From contig OZ223505.1 of assembly GCA_965140785.1 (NCBI GenBank), positions 32,001 to 96,000 on the forward strand: DNA of 64,000 nucleotides, read 5' to 3'. The notes beneath the pieces were generated by a model. That model was not told the DNA's origin. It worked only from the letters and a program-made list of their open reading frames with translations, and did no database searches. The stretch is from an uncultured Ruficoccus sp. (GTDB lineage: Bacteria > Verrucomicrobiota > Verrucomicrobiia > Opitutales > Cerasicoccaceae). Numbering within the stretch: position 1 is the stretch's first letter; the number at the start of each line of letters is the position of its first letter. Made by a program: the position numbers and the translations under genes. Shown here one piece after another: positions 55,221 through 63,886 of this stretch.

Positions 55221-56047
55221 ATGATGGACGAACCCGAGAATGGTCAAGAGCTCGCCAACGAGCCTGAGGAGCACGAGCCCGGTACGATGGGGCTGCTCGA
55301 CCACCTGGAGGAGCTGCGCTGGGCGGTGCTCAAGAGCATGAGCGCAGTGTTGGCCGGGGTCCTGCTCACGGCCTGTTTCTTTCCCACTTTTTTCTCTGTC
55401 CTGCGCTACCCGCTGGACCGCGCGATCGCCAACGAGCCGGACGGCCTCGTCGCCCTGACCACCACGAGCGTGATGGGCGTCTTCATGGTGATCATCCAGG
55501 TCTGTATGATCGGGGGCGTGGCCCTGGGCCTGCCTTTTGTGCTCTACCATTTTTCCCGTTTCGTCGCGCCGGGGCTGACGCAAAAGGAAAAAACGCGCCC
55601 TCGTCCCGGCTTGCGGGGCGACGCTCGTGCTCTTCCTTTTGGGGTGCCTGTTTCGCCTACTTCGTGGTGCTGCCGACCGGGCTGGAAGTGACCTTGTATT
55701 TAAATAAGAAACTCGGACTGGGGATTATCTGGACGGCGCAGAGCTACTATAACCTGGTCATCTGGCTGATGATCGGAGTGGGGGTGGCCTTCGAGTTTCC
55801 GCTCGTGCTGGTGATCCTTCAATACATCGGGGTGATCTCACCGGAGCAGTTGCGCGAGTACCGCCGCTTCGCCGTGGTGATCATCCTGGTGGCCGCGGCC
55901 CTGATCACGCCCGGGGGCGACCCGGTGACGATGCTCATGCTGGCTTCCGTGCTCTACCTGTTCTTCGAAGCTGCCATCGTGGTGGGGGATAAACTCGTCC
56001 GCAAACGCAAGGCCGCGATGGAAGAGTTCCTGGACGACGAGGAGTAA
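55221..56047 (+). pseudogene. tatC: Twin-arginine translocase subunit TatC, split by two +1 frameshifts (real lesion or sequencing error)
   Basis: LLDHLEELRW ... FVAPGL and AFEFP ... AALITPGGDP in different frames; removing one A (55588-55593) and one T (55651-55653) restores one ORF. Confidence 0.85.
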
Positions 56048-56548: not shown

Positions 56549-57049
56549 TCACGAGGAAACTTCTAGGAGGGATAAAAGTACGTAACGACCGACCCGGGTC
56601 TCAATCGGACGGGCGTTGATATGGTATTTACGTATCACTTGTTGGCTGCCGTTCACGATACGAAGTTTGCAATCGTCTTTATTTTCCTCACCCGCGAAGG
56701 CCCGCTCCACCGACGTGCTCACGGCGCACTTGTCGCAGCCGACGGCAGTTCCACAGCCGCTGCGGCGCAGGGTGGAAGATTGGCAGCCGAGCAGTTCACC
56801 GATGCGCAGCCCGACGAACAGGTTGTCGTTGGCCATGTCCAGCAGCGCGGAAAAGGCACGGTTGGCGAAAACGACCTGACGGTGACGATTGAGAATCGTC
56901 CAGGCGCCCGGCATGACCTCGATGACACGACGCAGGTGCGAAAGCCGCTCGATGCGAGAGGCTTCCTGCCGAATCGACTCCTTCGAACACCGGACCGGCG
57001 CGGCCCGTTGTTTGGAAAGAGTTGATCGATTTGCTGCGATTGCTGCCAT
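56549..57049 (-). CDS. Stand-alone PAS-like domain protein with Cys cluster
   Basis: VIEVMPGAWTILNRHRQVVFANRAF; GLRIGELLGC...GCGTAVGCDKC. Confidence 0.7.
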   Translation of the reverse strand: MAAIAANRSTLSKQRAAPVRCSKESIRQEASRIERLSHLRRVIEVMPGAWTILNRHRQVVFANRAFSALLDMANDNLFVGLRIGELLGCQSSTLRRSGCGTAVGCDKCAVSTSVERAFAGEENKDDCKLRIVNGSQQVIRKYHINARPIETRVGRYVLLSLLEVSS

Positions 57050-57758: not shown

Positions 57759-58394
57759 TCAGTGGCAGAGACCGACCGTGTTGAGCCAGTGACGGGCCAT
57801 CAAGGCATGCCCGGCAGGGGTGGGGTGGACACCGTCGGCGGCCCAGAAGGCCGCTTCACGCTTCATGGAAGCGGCGGCGAAGATGCCGTCGAAGGGCACG
57901 TAGCGGGCGCCGAACTCGCGGGCCAACTCGCGGGCGGCGTGGATTTTCGGGTCTAGGTCCTCGCGCCAGGCCTTGCGGTCCTGGGGGTGAGGCAGGACAA
58001 AGGGCTCGCAGACGATGAGCTTGATCCCGGCCCCGGCGCAGCGGGTGAGGATGTCCCGGTAATGGTCGGTGTAGTCTTCGGTCGAGGTCGGGTCGTTGTT
58101 GTCGAAGCGGCGCCAGGTGTCGTTGATGCCGATCAGGATGGAGACCCAGTCGGGCTTGAGGTCGAGGCAGTCTTGCTGCCAGCGGTCGGCCAGGTTGACC
58201 GCGCGGTTGCCGCTGATGCCACGGTTGATGAAGGTCAGGTTCAGCTCCGGGCGGGCGGCGCTCAGCCAGGCCGAGGCCAGCGCGGCGTAGCCGCGTCCCA
58301 TGTCGGCCAGGTTGACTTCCTTGTCGCGTCCGGCGTCCGTGATGCTGTCCCCCTGAAAGAGAATCGTTTGTCCAGCTTCGAAAATAAGGCTCAT
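57759..58394 (-). CDS. SGNH/GDSL hydrolase
   Basis: FQGDSITD, NRGISG, IGINDTW, DGVHP. Confidence 0.93.
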   Translation of the reverse strand: MSLIFEAGQTILFQGDSITDAGRDKEVNLADMGRGYAALASAWLSAARPELNLTFINRGISGNRAVNLADRWQQDCLDLKPDWVSILIGINDTWRRFDNNDPTSTEDYTDHYRDILTRCAGAGIKLIVCEPFVLPHPQDRKAWREDLDPKIHAARELAREFGARYVPFDGIFAAASMKREAAFWAADGVHPTPAGHALMARHWLNTVGLCH

Positions 58395-58554
58395 CCCACC
58401 GGCATAGATCAGCGATTCTGTTTTGGAAAGGAGAAAGAATAAGGCCGTGCACTCATGAGGAAAGTAAGCGAGCGGCTGAACGCAAAGAGTGGCACCGCTT
58501 ATGCTCAATTTTGTCCCCGCGACCTCGCCAACCCATTGACCCACTATTTTGCCC

Positions 58555-58812
58555 ATGGAACCTCAGAGTAACCAGATCCACGGCCACGCCGTGATGGACA
58601 TGATGATCGCCGCCGACCAGGCCTATACCCGTGAGAGCTTGCGGGCGGCCATCGTCGAGCGCTTCGGTGAGGACGCGGTTTTCTACACCTGCTCGGCCAG
58701 TGGGCTGGACGTGGACGCGATGATCGACTTTCTCGCCGGCCATGGGAAGCTCAAGGGCGAGCCCGGGGCGTTGCGACTCGATCCGTCCACCCGTTGCGAT
58801 GATGATGAATAG
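58555..58812 (+). CDS. YecH family (DUF2492) metal-binding protein
   Basis: IHGHAVMDMM, FGEDAVFYTCSA, FLAGHGK. Confidence 0.85.
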   Translation: MEPQSNQIHGHAVMDMMIAADQAYTRESLRAAIVERFGEDAVFYTCSASGLDVDAMIDFLAGHGKLKGEPGALRLDPSTRCDDDE

Positions 58813-58854: not shown

Positions 58855-59790
58855 CTAGAAGCTCGCGCCGATTTCGAAGCCGAAGGTGGCGGTCGGCTCG
58901 GCCTTGACCGTTTGGTACTTGTTGCGGTTGGCGCGGAACTCGTACTCGCTCCAGAAGTCGCCCTGAACGTAGCCGCGCACGTAGAAGGGGCCGCCGAAGC
59001 GGTAGGTGACGCCGACGGCGGCGGTTACGGAGGAGGCTTCCACCGCGGGGTTCACGACCGAGCTGGCAGCCTGGACGTACTGCTTGTTGAGCTGGAAGCT
59101 GCTGGAGTTGTACTGCACGGTGAAGTCGAGCACCGTCTGCTGGTCGGCGTTGACGTCGTAAACGAGCGTCACCCCGTTGAAGCTGCGCAGGCGCAGGTTC
59201 TCGTTGATGCGCCACTCGATGAAGCCCACCGGCCAGTAGCGCACCGCCTGTTGAAGGTCGGAGATGATCAGCACACCGAAGGAAAAGGAGAAGCCTTTGA
59301 AAAACTCGTAGCTGGCACCGAAACTGGCGGTGTAGGAGTCGCCGCTGGTCAGCGTGGCGTCCCCGGACTCGGCCCCGAGGCTGCCGCTGGCCATGGCGTA
59401 CGCGCCCCAGTCGCTGTCCTCGAACTGGTACTGGTAGATCGCGCTGAGCGAAATCTGGCTCACATCGCTGAAGTAGCTGGGCGCGCCATTGGACCAGTTG
59501 TAGTCGCTGTAGGTGTAGTCGAAGGTGATGCTGAGGCGGTTGTCCTTCCAGCCCTTCTTGTAGCTGAGGGTCGTTTCCAGCTCGGTCAGATCCATCTCGC
59601 CGTTGACGCCGTTCTTGAGGTCGCTGGGAACAGTGTAGCTGACGCCCTGCCCGATGGTGACACCGACCGGAACTTCCGGCGAGAAGATGTCCAGAAACGT
59701 CCCCGAGGTGGTCAGCTGCTGGGCATGGGCGCTCAGGGCAGCCAGGGTGAGGGCGGCGGCAAAGGTGTAGCGGTGGGCACGGTGACGCAT
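58855..59790 (-). CDS. Outer-membrane beta-barrel protein (DUF6268-like)
   Basis: Signal peptide; alternating aromatic beta-strand pattern; C-terminal Phe (IGASF). Confidence 0.78.
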   Translation of the reverse strand: MRHRAHRYTFAAALTLAALSAHAQQLTTSGTFLDIFSPEVPVGVTIGQGVSYTVPSDLKNGVNGEMDLTELETTLSYKKGWKDNRLSITFDYTYSDYNWSNGAPSYFSDVSQISLSAIYQYQFEDSDWGAYAMASGSLGAESGDATLTSGDSYTASFGASYEFFKGFSFSFGVLIISDLQQAVRYWPVGFIEWRINENLRLRSFNGVTLVYDVNADQQTVLDFTVQYNSSSFQLNKQYVQAASSVVNPAVEASSVTAAVGVTYRFGGPFYVRGYVQGDFWSEYEFRANRNKYQTVKAEPTATFGFEIGASF

Positions 59791-59994: not shown

Positions 59995-60516
59995 ATGTTG
60001 CAACTGGTCCACGACAATGTGCGCTGCCTGCGTCAGGGCATCGATCTGCTCAAGTCGCTGCCCGCCTCCGAATACATCCGCAAGCATCCGCAATGCTTCG
60101 GCAGTACCATCGGGGGGCACATGCGTCATAATATCGATCACTATGACAGTTTTGTCCGGGGCCTGCCAACGGGAGAGATCGACTACGACGCACGTGTGCG
60201 GGATCCGGAGGTTGAGACCGGTCTGGCACGGGCCACCCAACGCCTGGAGGAACTGATATCCGCCCTGGAGGCCATCAATGAAAAGGCGCTGGAGTCACCG
60301 GTCGAGGTGATTATGGATAGCGGGGGCGACCCCGCGCTGTGTGGCCCGACCGCTTCAAGCGCCCGGCGCGAGTTGCAGTTCCTCCTCAGCCACACCGTTC
60401 ATCACTACGCGCTCATCGTGGTGCTGTGCCAGTTGCGCGGGATCGAGACAGCCCCGGACTTTGGCGTCGCGCCCAGCACTCTGCGCCATCGCGCCCAGTC
60501 CTCATGTGCACAGTAA
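59995..60516 (+). CDS. DinB-like four-helix His metal-binding protein
   Basis: TIGGHMRHNIDHY, IDYDARVRD, RELQFLLSHTVHHYAL, FGVAPST. Confidence 0.85.
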   Translation: MLQLVHDNVRCLRQGIDLLKSLPASEYIRKHPQCFGSTIGGHMRHNIDHYDSFVRGLPTGEIDYDARVRDPEVETGLARATQRLEELISALEAINEKALESPVEVIMDSGGDPALCGPTASSARRELQFLLSHTVHHYALIVVLCQLRGIETAPDFGVAPSTLRHRAQSSCAQ

Positions 60517-61247
60517 CCTGGTGGAGCGCAGCCGACGGCTACGAGCTGTACTTTAACCGCGACGAGCTCAAGTCGCGCCTGCCTGGCCTGCCGCCGGAGG
60601 AACGCGTGCTGGATGGGGTGCGCTACCTGAGCCCGCGCGATGGTGATGAGGGGGGCACCTGGCTGCTCGTTAATGAATTCAGCCTCACGCTCTGCCTGAT
60701 CAACCAGTACCCGTTGCGCCGCCCGGTCAAGCGCGGCCCACTGGTCAGCCGGGGGCATCTGGTCCGTGCGCTGGCCTCCTGCCGTGAGGTTGCGGAGGTG
60801 GCTCGGTGTCTGCGTGATTCCGAACTTTTTTCCTACCGGCCTTTTCAACTGGTGGCGGTCGAGCCGGGCGGGGCGGGGGTGGCCTATGCCTGGGACGGAC
60901 ACGCGCTGGCTGAGACTGAAAACGCCCGCGAGCGTATGCCTTTTACCTCCTCCTCCTATCTGTCCGAGCAGATCGTCCAGCACCGCCGCGAGCGTTTTTC
61001 GCAGATCGTGGCCGAGCGCGGCGATATGAGCCCGCGGGATTTGCTGGCCTTTCACCGTGAGCACAGCGTGGGGGCCGGGGCGTTCTCGGTCTGCATGCAG
61101 CGCGACGATGCCGAGACGGTCAGCCTGACGCAGGTCGTCGTGCGTCCGGAGAAAATTTCCATGACCTATTCGCAGAAAGTCCCGGGGCAGCCGGTGTTCG
61201 CCGAGCCGGTCCATGCTTCGCTTAAACCCCGGGCCTGCCTTTCCTGA
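60504..61247 (+). CDS. NRDE/TANGO2 family protein (Ntn-hydrolase-like, N-terminal Cys)
   Basis: MCTV..., FNRDE, GGTW, SRG, TVS; overlaps the DinB stop by 13 nt. Confidence 0.9.
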   Translation: MCTVTWWSAADGYELYFNRDELKSRLPGLPPEERVLDGVRYLSPRDGDEGGTWLLVNEFSLTLCLINQYPLRRPVKRGPLVSRGHLVRALASCREVAEVARCLRDSELFSYRPFQLVAVEPGGAGVAYAWDGHALAETENARERMPFTSSSYLSEQIVQHRRERFSQIVAERGDMSPRDLLAFHREHSVGAGAFSVCMQRDDAETVSLTQVVVRPEKISMTYSQKVPGQPVFAEPVHASLKPRACLS

Positions 61248-61249
61248 CG

Positions 61250-63886
61250 ATGCGAGCGGGCACGGAGAAAAATAAGCGCGAAAGCCGCAAGCGCCGGTTC
61301 CGCCTGATGGTGGTGAGCGCGTTTGCGTTGCTGCTGCTGGCCTCGTACCTGTGGCGTCACTTTACCCTGCCGCCGACCGGGCCGCTACTGCCTGGCCAGG
61401 TCCGGGTCGCCCTGCCGGAGTGGAAGGTGGACCGCCACGCCGACGGCGAGATCGAACTGGCCTACCGCGACCTGCCGGCGAAGTCGGGCGACCCCGACGC
61501 GCCGGTGCTGATTCTCGTCCACGGCAGTCCGATGGCCTCGCAGGCGCTGGACGGCCTCATCCCGGGGCTGAACGAAAACACCCGGCTGATCCTGCCCGAC
61601 CTGCCCGGCTTCGGTGGCTCGACGCGGGACATCCCCGACTACTCGATCCGCACGCACGCGCACGCGATTCTCGACCTGATGGACCACCTCGGCCTGGAGC
61701 GGGCAAACCTCCTCGGCTACAGCCAGGGGGGCGGCGTGGTTATCAACGTGGCCGAACTCGCCCCCGAGCGCGTCCAGAGCCTGATTCTGCTCTCGGGCAT
61801 CGGCGTGCAGGAGTACGAGCTGACCGGCGATTACACGCTCAACCACGGCCTCTACGGGATGCAGTTACTGATCCTGACTGCGGCCCGCGAGGCGCTGCCG
61901 CACTTCGGCGTGCTGGACCGGTCGCTGCTGAATGTCCCCTATGCCCGCAACATGTGGGACAGCGACCAGCGTCCCCTGCGCGGCATTCTGGAAGATTACG
62001 ACGCGGCCATGCTCATCGTTCAGGGTGACAAGGACTTCTTCGTGCCGCCGACGACGGCCTACGAGCACCACCGTATCGTGCCCCAGAGCGAACTGGCCCT
62101 GCTCGACGGCGGGCACCTGCTGCCCTTCAAACGGCCCGACGCAGTGGCGGAAAAAGTGGACGGCTTTTTACAGAAGGTGAAAAAGGGCGCGGCCACGATC
62201 CGCCGGGACGCTTCGCCCGAGCGCCTGCTCAAGGCCGCCGCCGATCAGCCCGTTGCCCGGCGTGAGGCCAATGGCCGGACCCTGGCCTTTTACTGCGCCT
62301 TGCTGGTGGCCGGCACACAGGTGGCCGAAGACCTGACCTGCATCTCGGCGGGCTTTCTGGCCGCGCGCGGGGTGGTGCCGTTCTGGGCGGGGACGGTGGC
62401 CTGCATCTTTGGGATCTTTGCCGGGGACATGCTGCTGTACCTGGCCGGGCGTTTCCTGGGCCGTAAGGCGCTGCGCCACGCCCCGCTTAAATGGATGCTC
62501 AAGGAGCGCGACCTCAACTCCATGCAGGAGTGGTTCGAGCAACGCGGGCCGATGCTGATCGTGATGTCGCGCTTTATGCCGGGCACGCGTATCCCGGTCT
62601 TCTTCGGGGCGGGGATGCTGCACATGCCCACCGGCAAGTTCATGTTTTATTTCCTGCTGGCGGCGGTGGCCTGGACGCCGTGCCTGGTGGGGCTTGCCTG
62701 GTGGCTCGGGGACGCCTTCATCGGCTACTTCGAGCGCTTCGAGAAGTTCGCCATCGTCGGCCTGATCGGGGTGGTCGTCGGGATCATGCTCTTGCTGCAC
62801 CTGGTCGTACCCTTGTTTACCTGGCGCGGACGGCGTAAACTCTACGGGCGCTGGAAACGCTGGGCGCGCTGGGAGTATTGGCCGACGTGGCTCTTTTATC
62901 CGCCGGTGGCGGTCTATGTGCTGTGGCTGGGCCTGCGCAACCGGCACCTCGCACTGTTCACCGCCGTCAACCCCGGCATGGGCGAGGGCAGCGGCTTCAC
63001 CGGCGAGTCGAAGGTCGCCATCCTCGACAAGCTCAAGGGCGCGGACGGGGCGATTGCGACCTGGATGGCGCTCCGCGCCGGGGACACCGCCGAAGAAAAG
63101 GAGCGGCAGCTGCGCGCCTTTATGGAGCGCGAGGGGCTGGACTTCCCGCTCGTGCTCAAGCCCGACCTGGGCGAGCGCGGCAGCGGCGTGGCCATCATCC
63201 GCGACTGGGAGACGGCTCGCGGCTACCTGACACGCTGCCCGGACACCATCATCGCGCAGCGCTACATCCCGGGGCGCGAATACGGGATCTTTTACGTGCG
63301 CTATCCCTGGGAGGAAAAGGGGCGGATCTTCGGCATCACCGACAAGCGTTTCACCGCCGTGACCGGCGACGGCAAGAAGCCGTTGGAGGAACTTATCCTG
63401 GGAGACGACCGTGCCGTGTGTATGGAGAGCTTCTTCGAGCAGAAACACAGCGACCACCTCAGCGAGGTGGTGCCCGCCGGGGAAGAATATCAGTTAGCCG
63501 AGCTGGGCACGCACTGCCGCGGCTCGCTCTTCCTCGATGGTTGCGAGCTGGCCACCGAGCCCCTGTGCGAGTGGTTGCAGGGGGTGAGCGATACCTTCGA
63601 GGGCTTTTACTTCGGGCGCTACGACGTGCGGGTTCCCTCGGTGGAGGACCTGCAGGCCGGACGCAATCTCTCCGTGATCGAGCTCAACGGCGTCAGCTCG
63701 GAGGCCACCTGGATCTACGACCCGCGGCACTCCGTTCTTTTCGCCTGGCGCACACTCTTTGAGCAGTGGCGGATGGCGTTCAAGATCGCCGCCTGGAACC
63801 GTGCCCACGGCCACCGGCCCGAGACCTGCCGCCGGACCGCACGGGCGATCCTTGGCCGCGGCCTGCGCGAGCCCTTCGAGGCGTGA
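61250..63886 (+). CDS. Fusion protein: alpha/beta hydrolase + DedA/VTT membrane domain + ATP-grasp domain
   Basis: HGSP, PDLPGFG, GYSQGG, GDKD, GGH; EDLT...GDMLLYLAGR...SRFMPGTR; WEYWP, NPG, GESK, FPLVLKPDLGERGSGV, GTHCRG, GRYDVR, IELNG. Confidence 0.9.
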   Translation: MRAGTEKNKRESRKRRFRLMVVSAFALLLLASYLWRHFTLPPTGPLLPGQVRVALPEWKVDRHADGEIELAYRDLPAKSGDPDAPVLILVHGSPMASQALDGLIPGLNENTRLILPDLPGFGGSTRDIPDYSIRTHAHAILDLMDHLGLERANLLGYSQGGGVVINVAELAPERVQSLILLSGIGVQEYELTGDYTLNHGLYGMQLLILTAAREALPHFGVLDRSLLNVPYARNMWDSDQRPLRGILEDYDAAMLIVQGDKDFFVPPTTAYEHHRIVPQSELALLDGGHLLPFKRPDAVAEKVDGFLQKVKKGAATIRRDASPERLLKAAADQPVARREANGRTLAFYCALLVAGTQVAEDLTCISAGFLAARGVVPFWAGTVACIFGIFAGDMLLYLAGRFLGRKALRHAPLKWMLKERDLNSMQEWFEQRGPMLIVMSRFMPGTRIPVFFGAGMLHMPTGKFMFYFLLAAVAWTPCLVGLAWWLGDAFIGYFERFEKFAIVGLIGVVVGIMLLLHLVVPLFTWRGRRKLYGRWKRWARWEYWPTWLFYPPVAVYVLWLGLRNRHLALFTAVNPGMGEGSGFTGESKVAILDKLKGADGAIATWMALRAGDTAEEKERQLRAFMEREGLDFPLVLKPDLGERGSGVAIIRDWETARGYLTRCPDTIIAQRYIPGREYGIFYVRYPWEEKGRIFGITDKRFTAVTGDGKKPLEELILGDDRAVCMESFFEQKHSDHLSEVVPAGEEYQLAELGTHCRGSLFLDGCELATEPLCEWLQGVSDTFEGFYFGRYDVRVPSVEDLQAGRNLSVIELNGVSSEATWIYDPRHSVLFAWRTLFEQWRMAFKIAAWNRAHGHRPETCRRTARAILGRGLREPFEA

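Follow-up and report, generated by a model that had tools for sequence, protein, structure and literature searches.

What might an operon do that couples a DinB-family gene and an NRDE/TANGO2-family gene to a third gene, in which an anchored alpha/beta hydrolase, a DedA membrane domain, and an ATP-grasp ligase are joined in one polypeptide? We addressed this question for a trio of plus-strand genes in a stretch of 64,000 nucleotides from an uncultured Ruficoccus sp. (GenBank assembly GCA_965140785.1, contig OZ223505.1), the whole of which is hereafter called the window. Our results indicate, with good confidence, that the module formed by these genes is functionally tied to amino-acid lipids. 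More specifically, we give about an even chance to the reading that this operon represents, in the window, an accessory module of wide occurrence that serves acyloxyacyl amino-acid lipids, i.e., those of the ornithine-, lysine-, and glycine-lipid types, which are made by OlsB/OlsA or OlsF.

Recurrence of the module and its association with lipid synthases

The window's genome and 40 relatives (n = 41) were searched for the trio. The fusion, or its DedA-ATP-grasp core, was found at E < 1e-100 in 20 of the 41 genomes. Full-length fusion homologues in these genomes showed 44-79% identity, and the fusion proteins of Ruficoccus amylovorans and Ruficoccus sp. ZRK36 were 78-79% identical to that of the window over the ATP-grasp region. 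The genes for DinB, NRDE, and the fusion adjoin on one contig in 18 of the 20 module genomes; in G005 and G020, whose assemblies are fragmented, the matches to the trio lie on different contigs.

The ATP-grasp part was also searched against 1.84 billion representative proteins, giving 1038 representative clusters at E values up to 1e-30. The best 150 representatives were sorted with our own profiles into 67 hydrolase-DedA-ATP-grasp proteins (64 plain and 3 with a split ATP-grasp match), 49 DedA-ATP-grasp proteins (48 and 1, respectively), 26 proteins with ATP-grasp alone (25 and 1), and 5 hydrolase-ATP-grasp proteins. Three representatives (P0107, P0128, and P0142) join NRDE to ATP-grasp, and P0142 carries a complete NRDE domain ahead of the anchor helix. 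The source names of the homologues include Verrucomicrobiota, candidate division KSB1, Bacteroidota/Rhodothermales, Acidobacteriota, and Planctomycetota. A search started from a stand-alone ATP-grasp protein gave 3972 matches; Acidobacteriota were named among the best 120 of these, whereas Acetobacteraceae were not.

An alignment-based metagenome scan provided 80 loci with a median length of 8.3 kb. Within the same-strand run leading to the ATP-grasp gene, DinB was present in 44 loci, NRDE in 37, and both in 31. We regarded 56 of the 80 loci as informative, meaning that they showed DinB or held at least 1500 bases upstream; among these, DinB was directly upstream in 44 and NRDE in 32. Six metagenome loci showed an alternative order, in which DinB, DedA, NRDE, and ATP-grasp were separate genes. 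As the trio recurs in the same order in related genomes and in metagenome loci, its conservation goes far beyond chance, and the neighbourhood check that the earlier note on this DNA had named for its proposal comes out in its favour. No hydrolase domain was seen in the run in 38 of the 80 loci, some of which were cut at a contig end, indicating that the hydrolase stands outside the core of the module. Two frames of 1163 and 1031 residues (L103 1716-5207, minus strand, and L104 2755-5850, plus strand) were considered as four-domain NRDE fusions and rejected, since each is a frame prolonged upstream across an NRDE gene that lies separately in another frame. Such overlong frames are a warning for the calling of open reading frames (ORFs) in DNA of high guanine-cytosine content.

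All ORFs neighbouring the module in the metagenome loci were clustered, and recurrent families were compared with Pfam and NCBIfam. A recurrent family of ~270 residues, found in 25 of the 80 loci, was PF13444 (Acetyltransf_5), the OlsB-type N-acyltransferase, and all 24 members tested scored above the Pfam cut-off. A PF01553 acyltransferase follows in 13 cases, and 4 members are OlsF-like fusions of Acyltransf_2 and PF13444. The best NCBIfam models were OlsB, OlsA, and OlsF, all under their equivalog cut-offs, so these matches do not fix the amino acid used. At the genome level, PF13444 was present in 19 of 20 module genomes among the relatives versus 9 of 21 without the module, and, in an evenly drawn phylum sample of 151 genomes, in 17 of 17 module genomes versus 78 of 134 without it. 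These counts show a one-way dependence, in which the module occurs only where the synthase exists, although they are not statistical proof. The sole PF13444 match in the window's genome is a gene of 615 residues on contig C4 that combines Acyltransf_2 with Acetyltransf_5; it is OlsF-like and reached 397.9 bits on the OlsF model, compared with a cut-off of 620.

Other neighbours recurred in the metagenome loci. A protein of ~220-280 residues with an invariant HExxH motif (11 of 11), mostly with a signal-peptide-like start and apparently exported, was seen in 11 of the 80 loci (e.g., L045 8602-9270, plus strand) and had no Pfam or NCBIfam family. In 10 of the 11 loci its gene closely follows the fusion or ATP-grasp gene, and in L088 it is on the opposite strand. 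DoxX-like membrane proteins and YHS-domain proteins were found in 11 and 6 loci, respectively (L094, L092, L045, L078, L097, and others). A Rieske/ferric-reductase membrane protein was paired in 7 of the 80 loci with a protein of 255 residues, for which there was no NCBIfam family.

The fusion protein and its predicted topology

The ORF listing places the three genes on one strand, with a 13-nt overlap between DinB and NRDE (60504-60516) and a 2-nt gap between NRDE and the fusion (61248-61249). It thereby bears out the tight coupling that the earlier note had reported. The same note had described the third gene product as a fusion of an anchored hydrolase, a DedA/VTT domain, and a C-terminal ATP-grasp, and this architecture was recovered by Pfam, by the helix profile, and by structure modelling with Foldseek. 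Its further claim of an intact Ser-Asp-His set in the hydrolase also held. The motifs GYSQG, GDKD, and GGH are all present, giving a triad of S158, D262 (the second D of GDKD), and H289; in the alignment of 47 fusions, the Ser is conserved in 43, the Asp in 45, and the His in 44. Gly replaces the nucleophile Ser in 4 of the 47, and about three of these four also lack the Asp and the His, indicating that the hydrolase has decayed in some lineages while DedA and ATP-grasp stayed intact there. The features of the locus are listed in Table 1.

Table 1. Features of the module and of the divergent upstream gene in the window
Feature	Position	Strand	Basis
DUF6268-type outer-membrane beta-barrel	58855..59790	-	nearest Atlas cluster DUF6268, score 0.98
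DinB_2-family protein, 173 residues	59995..60516	+	Pfam DinB_2 (PF12867) 41 bits, cut-off 24.8
NRDE/TANGO2-family protein, 247 residues, Met-Cys start	60504..61247	+	Pfam TANGO2 (PF05742) 32.3 bits, cut-off 22.6
Fusion protein, 878 residues: anchor helix, alpha/beta hydrolase, DedA/VTT, ATP-grasp	61250..63886	+	ORF and Pfam
N-terminal membrane anchor helix, residues 17-35	61298..61354	+	Kyte-Doolittle peak 1.88
Alpha/beta hydrolase domain, residues ~85-301, predicted periplasmic	61502..62152	+	Pfam Abhydrolase_1 (PF00561) 96.3 bits, residues 85-295
DedA/VTT membrane domain, residues ~344-522	62279..62815	+	Pfam VTT_dom (PF09335) 67 bits, cut-off 33.9, residues 367-481
Divergent ATP-grasp ligase domain, residues 531-878	62840..63886	+	structure model and Foldseek

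We next consider on which side of the membrane the two enzyme domains of the fusion would lie. Eight Lys/Arg residues are found in the N-terminal tail before the anchor helix. By the positive-inside rule, and because NRDE stands ahead of this helix in P0142, the tail is predicted to be cytoplasmic. Another eight Lys/Arg residues occur in the loop 401-432, and the stretch 523-540 after the last DedA helix is rich in Arg/Lys. For the E. coli DedA protein YqjA, cysteine-accessibility (SCAM) topology, as given in the available part of the source (10.1101/2021.10.18.464800), puts the region that precedes the first hairpin on the periplasmic side, and both the C-terminus and the loop leading into the second hairpin on the cytoplasmic side. 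When the fusion is placed on this topology by motif order, not by direct alignment, the hydrolase would sit in the periplasm, in the loop that links the anchor helix to the first hairpin of DedA, and the ATP-grasp domain in the cytoplasm. The arrangement expected by the earlier note, with the hydrolase outside and the ATP-grasp inside, thus agrees with the charge distribution, the YqjA topology, and P0142, but not with a Lys/Arg-rich linker before DedA, which is weighed below.

The DedA domain has conserved residues at E360, D361, D393, R441, and R447 in the fusion alignment. Its nearest NCBIfam model was UptA (NF052604, E 5.7e-16), and Ddl, the D-Ala-D-Ala ligase, is among the fold matches of the ATP-grasp domain. 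Both matches would suit a cell-wall function, in which DedA transports undecaprenyl-phosphate as UptA does and peptidoglycan precursors are the substrate of a Ddl-like ATP-grasp ligase. However, the UptA score of 59.2 bits is far below the cut-off of 250, no mur, ddl, or fem genes were present among the recurrent neighbours, and such a function would leave the lipid-synthase association unexplained. We consider it highly improbable.

The ATP-grasp domain was modelled over residues 531-878 from 32 sequences, with a predicted local distance difference test (pLDDT) value of 93.3 and a predicted template-modelling (pTM) value of 0.91. The model shows the ATP-grasp fold. Its best Foldseek matches were cyanophycin synthetase 1 (7wae, E 1.8e-11), the bifunctional glutathione synthetase GshF (3ln6, E 1.6e-10), and D-Ala-D-Ala ligases (~1e-8), with a Foldseek probability of 1.00, and 439 PDB chains matched at E values up to 0.001. 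K637, R790, D792, E811, and N813 were invariant in the fusion alignment (47 of 47). A weak sequence alignment that spans the ATP-binding strand pairs K637 with the corresponding strand of cyanophycin synthetase. By analogy, K637 may be the nucleotide-binding Lys, and D792, E811, and N813 may be Mg-binding residues. In front of the domain, and also in stand-alone proteins, there is a conserved aromatic helix that carries an RWE(F/Y)WP motif and may serve as a membrane-surface anchor; the domain itself is predicted to be cytoplasmic and membrane-proximal.

In the reactions of cyanophycin synthetase, GshF, and Ddl, a carboxylate in alpha or C-terminal position is phosphorylated and an amino acid is added. 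As these nearest folds use soluble amino acids or peptides, the ATP-grasp might work before the lipid is made: it would produce a soluble dipeptide or amide in the manner of an L-amino-acid ligase, an OlsB-type enzyme would N-acylate this product, and DedA would only anchor the ligase or export the product. Dipeptide as well as tripeptide lipid head groups are described in the available text of a 2026 review on amino-acid lipids (PMC12971839). The same text makes glycine lipid the intermediate of the serine-glycine lipid flavolipin; in that case, therefore, serine is added after acylation, which argues against a dipeptide formed first. The ligase is, moreover, membrane-tethered in all its forms, the aromatic helix being retained when DedA is absent. 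A soluble dipeptide precursor is in our judgement quite unlikely. Direct ligation by the ATP-grasp onto a lipid head group, the step in our preferred pathway, is put at somewhat short of an even chance.

The NRDE and DinB proteins and the neighbouring genes

In the NRDE protein, Cys2, R19, D20, and E21 were invariant across the 55 sequences compared, and N18 was shared by 50 of them. Its sequence had no match in the PDB at E values up to 1. A model built from a 43-sequence alignment (pLDDT 94.8) showed the four-layer alpha-beta-beta-alpha arrangement of the N-terminal nucleophile (Ntn) type. The top Foldseek matches were human TANGO2 (9bwa/8sv7, E ~2e-10, query-normalised TM-score 0.62-0.66), followed in order by CV2077 (3gvz) and then by choloylglycine/bile-salt hydrolases, penicillin V acylases, and isopenicillin N acyltransferase; one phospholipase-B-like protein was also among the matches listed to rank 48. 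On the basis of this model, the NRDE protein is predicted to be a cysteine Ntn amidase or acyltransferase. The available part of a paper on the TANGO2 crystal structure likewise favours a Cys Ntn hydrolase that acts on substrates derived from fatty acids (PMC13044924).

An N-terminal Cys nucleophile next to, or fused with, an ATP-grasp could also be read as an amidotransferase pair, in which NRDE acts as a Cys-Ntn glutaminase that supplies ammonia and the ATP-grasp converts a head-group carboxylate to a carboxamide. Asparagine synthetase B and MurT/GatD are models for such a pair. However, no class II glutamine amidotransferase was among the NRDE matches listed to rank 48, and NRDE was not beside the ligase in 24 of the 56 informative loci. 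This pairing therefore appears very unlikely.

The likeness of NRDE to N-acyl-amide hydrolases and the intact hydrolase triad would fit a second function, namely lipid turnover or repair. Here, the hydrolase would remove an ester-linked fatty acid, DedA would return the lyso-lipid, NRDE would split the N-acyl amide, and the ATP-grasp would re-use the released amino or fatty acid. The co-occurrence of module and synthase fits breakdown as well as decoration, and the exported HExxH proteins that accompany the fusion in 11 of the 80 loci could have a place in breakdown. On the other hand, an ATP-spending ligase has no obvious part in breakdown, and a hydrolase that is not seen in 38 of the 80 loci, some of them cut, does not belong to the core. 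We hold turnover to be unlikely, though not to be dismissed as lightly as the amidotransferase pair.

The DinB protein had no match in the PDB at E values up to 1. H45, H133, and H137, as well as H136, R44, R67, R69, R125, and E126, were invariant in 61 of 61 aligned homologues. Judged by the usual DinB pattern, H45, H133, and H137 may be the metal ligands and would form a putative three-His metal site. The best-known DinB-fold enzymes are thiol transferases, and EgtB carries a DinB domain. These precedents would suit a soluble product, such as a low-molecular-weight thiol conjugate, that the ATP-grasp makes, DinB and NRDE handle, and DedA exports; the adjacency of Ols genes would then reflect a shared envelope-stress response. 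One DinB neighbour showed a weak match to mycothiol S-transferase (E 0.00019), and DoxX and YHS genes lie near the module in 11 and 6 of the 80 loci. However, there were no cysteine-, glutamate-, or sugar-handling thiol-pathway genes among the recurrent neighbours, and shared regulation alone would not readily account for the dependence on the synthase (17 of 17 module genomes in the phylum sample, 19 of 20 among the relatives). A soluble product is, accordingly, improbable in our view.

Around the trio, several further genes were observed. The beta-barrel gene that the earlier note had placed divergently upstream does group with DUF6268 outer-membrane beta-barrels; it has a signal-peptide-like start and a C-terminal Phe, and no NCBIfam family was found for it. 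A homologue lies beside the module in 4 of 11 mapped loci of related genomes (L011, L013, L015, and L018), a count made with a greedy gene caller that missed the DUF6268 gene in the window's own locus (L012). None was seen in the 80 metagenome loci. The barrel is possibly a local partner outside the widespread core. A GDSL/SGNH hydrolase gene (57759-58556, minus strand; Pfam 97.6 bits) has homologues near the module in L012, L014, and L015 and might encode a lipid-acyl partner restricted to this lineage; translation probably begins near residue 55, so that the protein has no signal peptide. Between the GDSL and beta-barrel genes lies a gene for a small metal-binding protein of the YecH family (DUF2492; TIGR03853, 88 bits; 58549-58812, plus strand). 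A response-regulator receiver gene converges on the 3' end of the fusion just past the end of the window (L012 8287-8934, minus strand), and homologues (cluster F3) occupy the same position in 5 loci of related genomes. Upstream of the studied region, the translation of 55664-56047 (plus strand) resembles, as judged by eye, the C-terminal part of TatC, and an ORF of 166 residues at 56549-57049 (minus strand) has a weak PAS match (E 0.003). A promoter scan of the region gave three promoter-like sites, all on the minus strand, and 4 terminator-like sites versus 4.1 in shuffled sequence.

Proposed pathway and comparison with known systems

We propose that an OlsF-like enzyme encoded elsewhere in the genome would build an N-acyl amino-acid lipid with a free alpha-carboxylate left in its head group. 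The ATP-grasp domain, located immediately after the final DedA helix on the cytoplasmic side, would activate this carboxylate as an acyl phosphate and join to it an amine, such as an amino acid or taurine, giving a longer or capped head group. The DedA domain would then carry the lipid across the inner membrane, and the periplasmic hydrolase would remove or transfer an acyl or head-group ester on the outside. The cytoplasmic NRDE protein, as a Cys2 Ntn-type enzyme of the bile-salt-hydrolase kind, would cleave or transfer the N-acyl amide for editing or recycling, and DinB would be a metal enzyme for a further step. The assembly line of the earlier note, with ligation inside, flipping, and hydrolysis outside, thus survives as a broad idea, with its substrate shifted to lipids of the OlsB/OlsA/OlsF type. 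The Ols neighbours and the genome co-occurrence favour acyloxyacyl amino-acid lipids over aminoacylated phospholipids, and nothing was found in support of the thiol conjugate that the note had named as a possible product.

The available text of the review cited above (PMC12971839) contains two further points that bear on this pathway. The transfer of taurine onto the ornithine-lipid carboxyl, which yields cerilipin, is ATP-dependent, and its gene had not been identified. In addition, OlsI, an alpha/beta hydrolase, is the O-acyltransferase of another ornithine-lipid pathway. An ATP-dependent head-group step without a gene, on the one hand, and a tethered cyanophycin-synthetase/Ddl-like ligase fused to DedA, on the other, suggest the module as a suitable candidate for a route in which the head group is extended and the lipid is then flipped. 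The terms ATP-grasp and DedA are absent from that text, and no prior description of the module was found in the literature searched, which excluded subscription-journal papers and supplementary files.

Several findings, however, weigh against the proposed pathway. The structural relatives of the ATP-grasp domain all act on soluble compounds, and a lipid substrate can therefore not be deduced from the fold. The window's domain is also below every Pfam gathering score (RimK, 17.1 bits versus 21, residues 617-674), although some homologous ATP-grasps reach 22-25 bits on RimK. The linker at ~305-343 holds ~10 Lys/Arg residues, which is unusual for a periplasmic segment. No PF13444/Ols gene occurs in the window region examined, the OlsF-like gene being on another contig, and none was present within the available DNA in 55 of the 80 metagenome loci, many of which are short. 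PF13444 is common, with 95 of the 151 genomes of the phylum sample carrying it, and the relatives are not independent; the co-occurrence is therefore weaker than the raw counts suggest. The core itself varies, since DinB is not upstream in 12 and NRDE not upstream in 24 of the 56 informative loci. DinB, whose best-known fold relatives are thiol transferases, has no clear place in an amino-acid-lipid pathway. Finally, a bacterial TANGO2 homologue, from Shewanella, was assigned to heme trafficking in the available part of its report (PMC10470608).

Amino-acid lipids are common in bacterial membranes, and the available text of the review (PMC12971839) leaves steps such as taurine transfer and di- or tripeptide extension without genes. 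The module offers a candidate enzyme set for these steps and suggests lipids that a DedA-family domain may carry. It also places a bacterial TANGO2 relative in a defined lipid setting, one that can be tested in cultivable bacteria. Loss of TANGO2 leads to severe human metabolic disease, and the function of the protein is disputed; a heme-trafficking role of its homologues has reportedly been contested (PMC12782551). A bolder claim is that this ATP-grasp family is the missing head-group ligase, which would add taurine to ornithine lipid or serine to glycine lipid, and that NRDE/TANGO2 proteins are cytoplasmic N-acyl-amino-acid amidases or transacylases that edit lipids. Taken as a whole, this claim is unlikely to hold. 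If it were true, human TANGO2 would act on lipids of the N-acyl amino-acid or N-acyl-taurine type, which would be a concrete substrate class.

The module can be set beside known systems at the level of its single domains. Compared with the G domain of cyanophycin synthetase, the ATP-grasp of GshF, and Ddl, its ATP-grasp showed 8-19% identity and query-normalised TM-scores of 0.36-0.55, and the family differs from them by its own N-terminal aromatic helix, an NPG...GESK motif, and the fusion to a membrane domain. The NRDE protein shares with human TANGO2 the Pfam family, Cys2 with the NRDE motif, and the fold (8sv7/9bwa), but only 17% identity; its model also matches the fold of the choloylglycine-hydrolase group, i.e., bile-salt hydrolase, penicillin V acylase, and isopenicillin N acyltransferase. 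E. coli YqjA has acidic and Arg residues in both hairpin regions (E39, D51, R130, and R136), and the DedA part of the fusion does likewise. In contrast to DedA proteins of the YqjA/UptA type, the fusion has a hydrolase inserted before the first hairpin and a ligase behind the last helix.

At the level of pathways, the Ols system and MprF are the closest comparisons. The Ols system shares its synthase genes with the module, beside which they lie in 25 of the 80 loci, and the proposed ligation would match the ATP-dependent taurine transfer that is without a gene in the available text of the review. The known tailoring enzymes of that system are OlsC, OlsD, OlsE, and OlsG; none of the five domains of the module falls in a described Ols family, and in the window the synthase gene is not adjacent. 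MprF is an aminoacyl-phosphatidylglycerol synthase and flippase, with AcvB/VirJ and PA0919 as periplasmic hydrolase partners. It has the same layout as the module, in that a cytoplasmic head-group enzyme is fused to a lipid translocator and a hydrolase acts on the outer face. This likeness is one of layout only: the two systems share no domain, and no MprF-related family was among the Pfam and NCBIfam matches in the window. MprF uses aminoacyl-tRNA and a GNAT-like synthase on phosphatidylglycerol, whereas the module would use ATP-grasp and DedA on phosphorus-free lipids.

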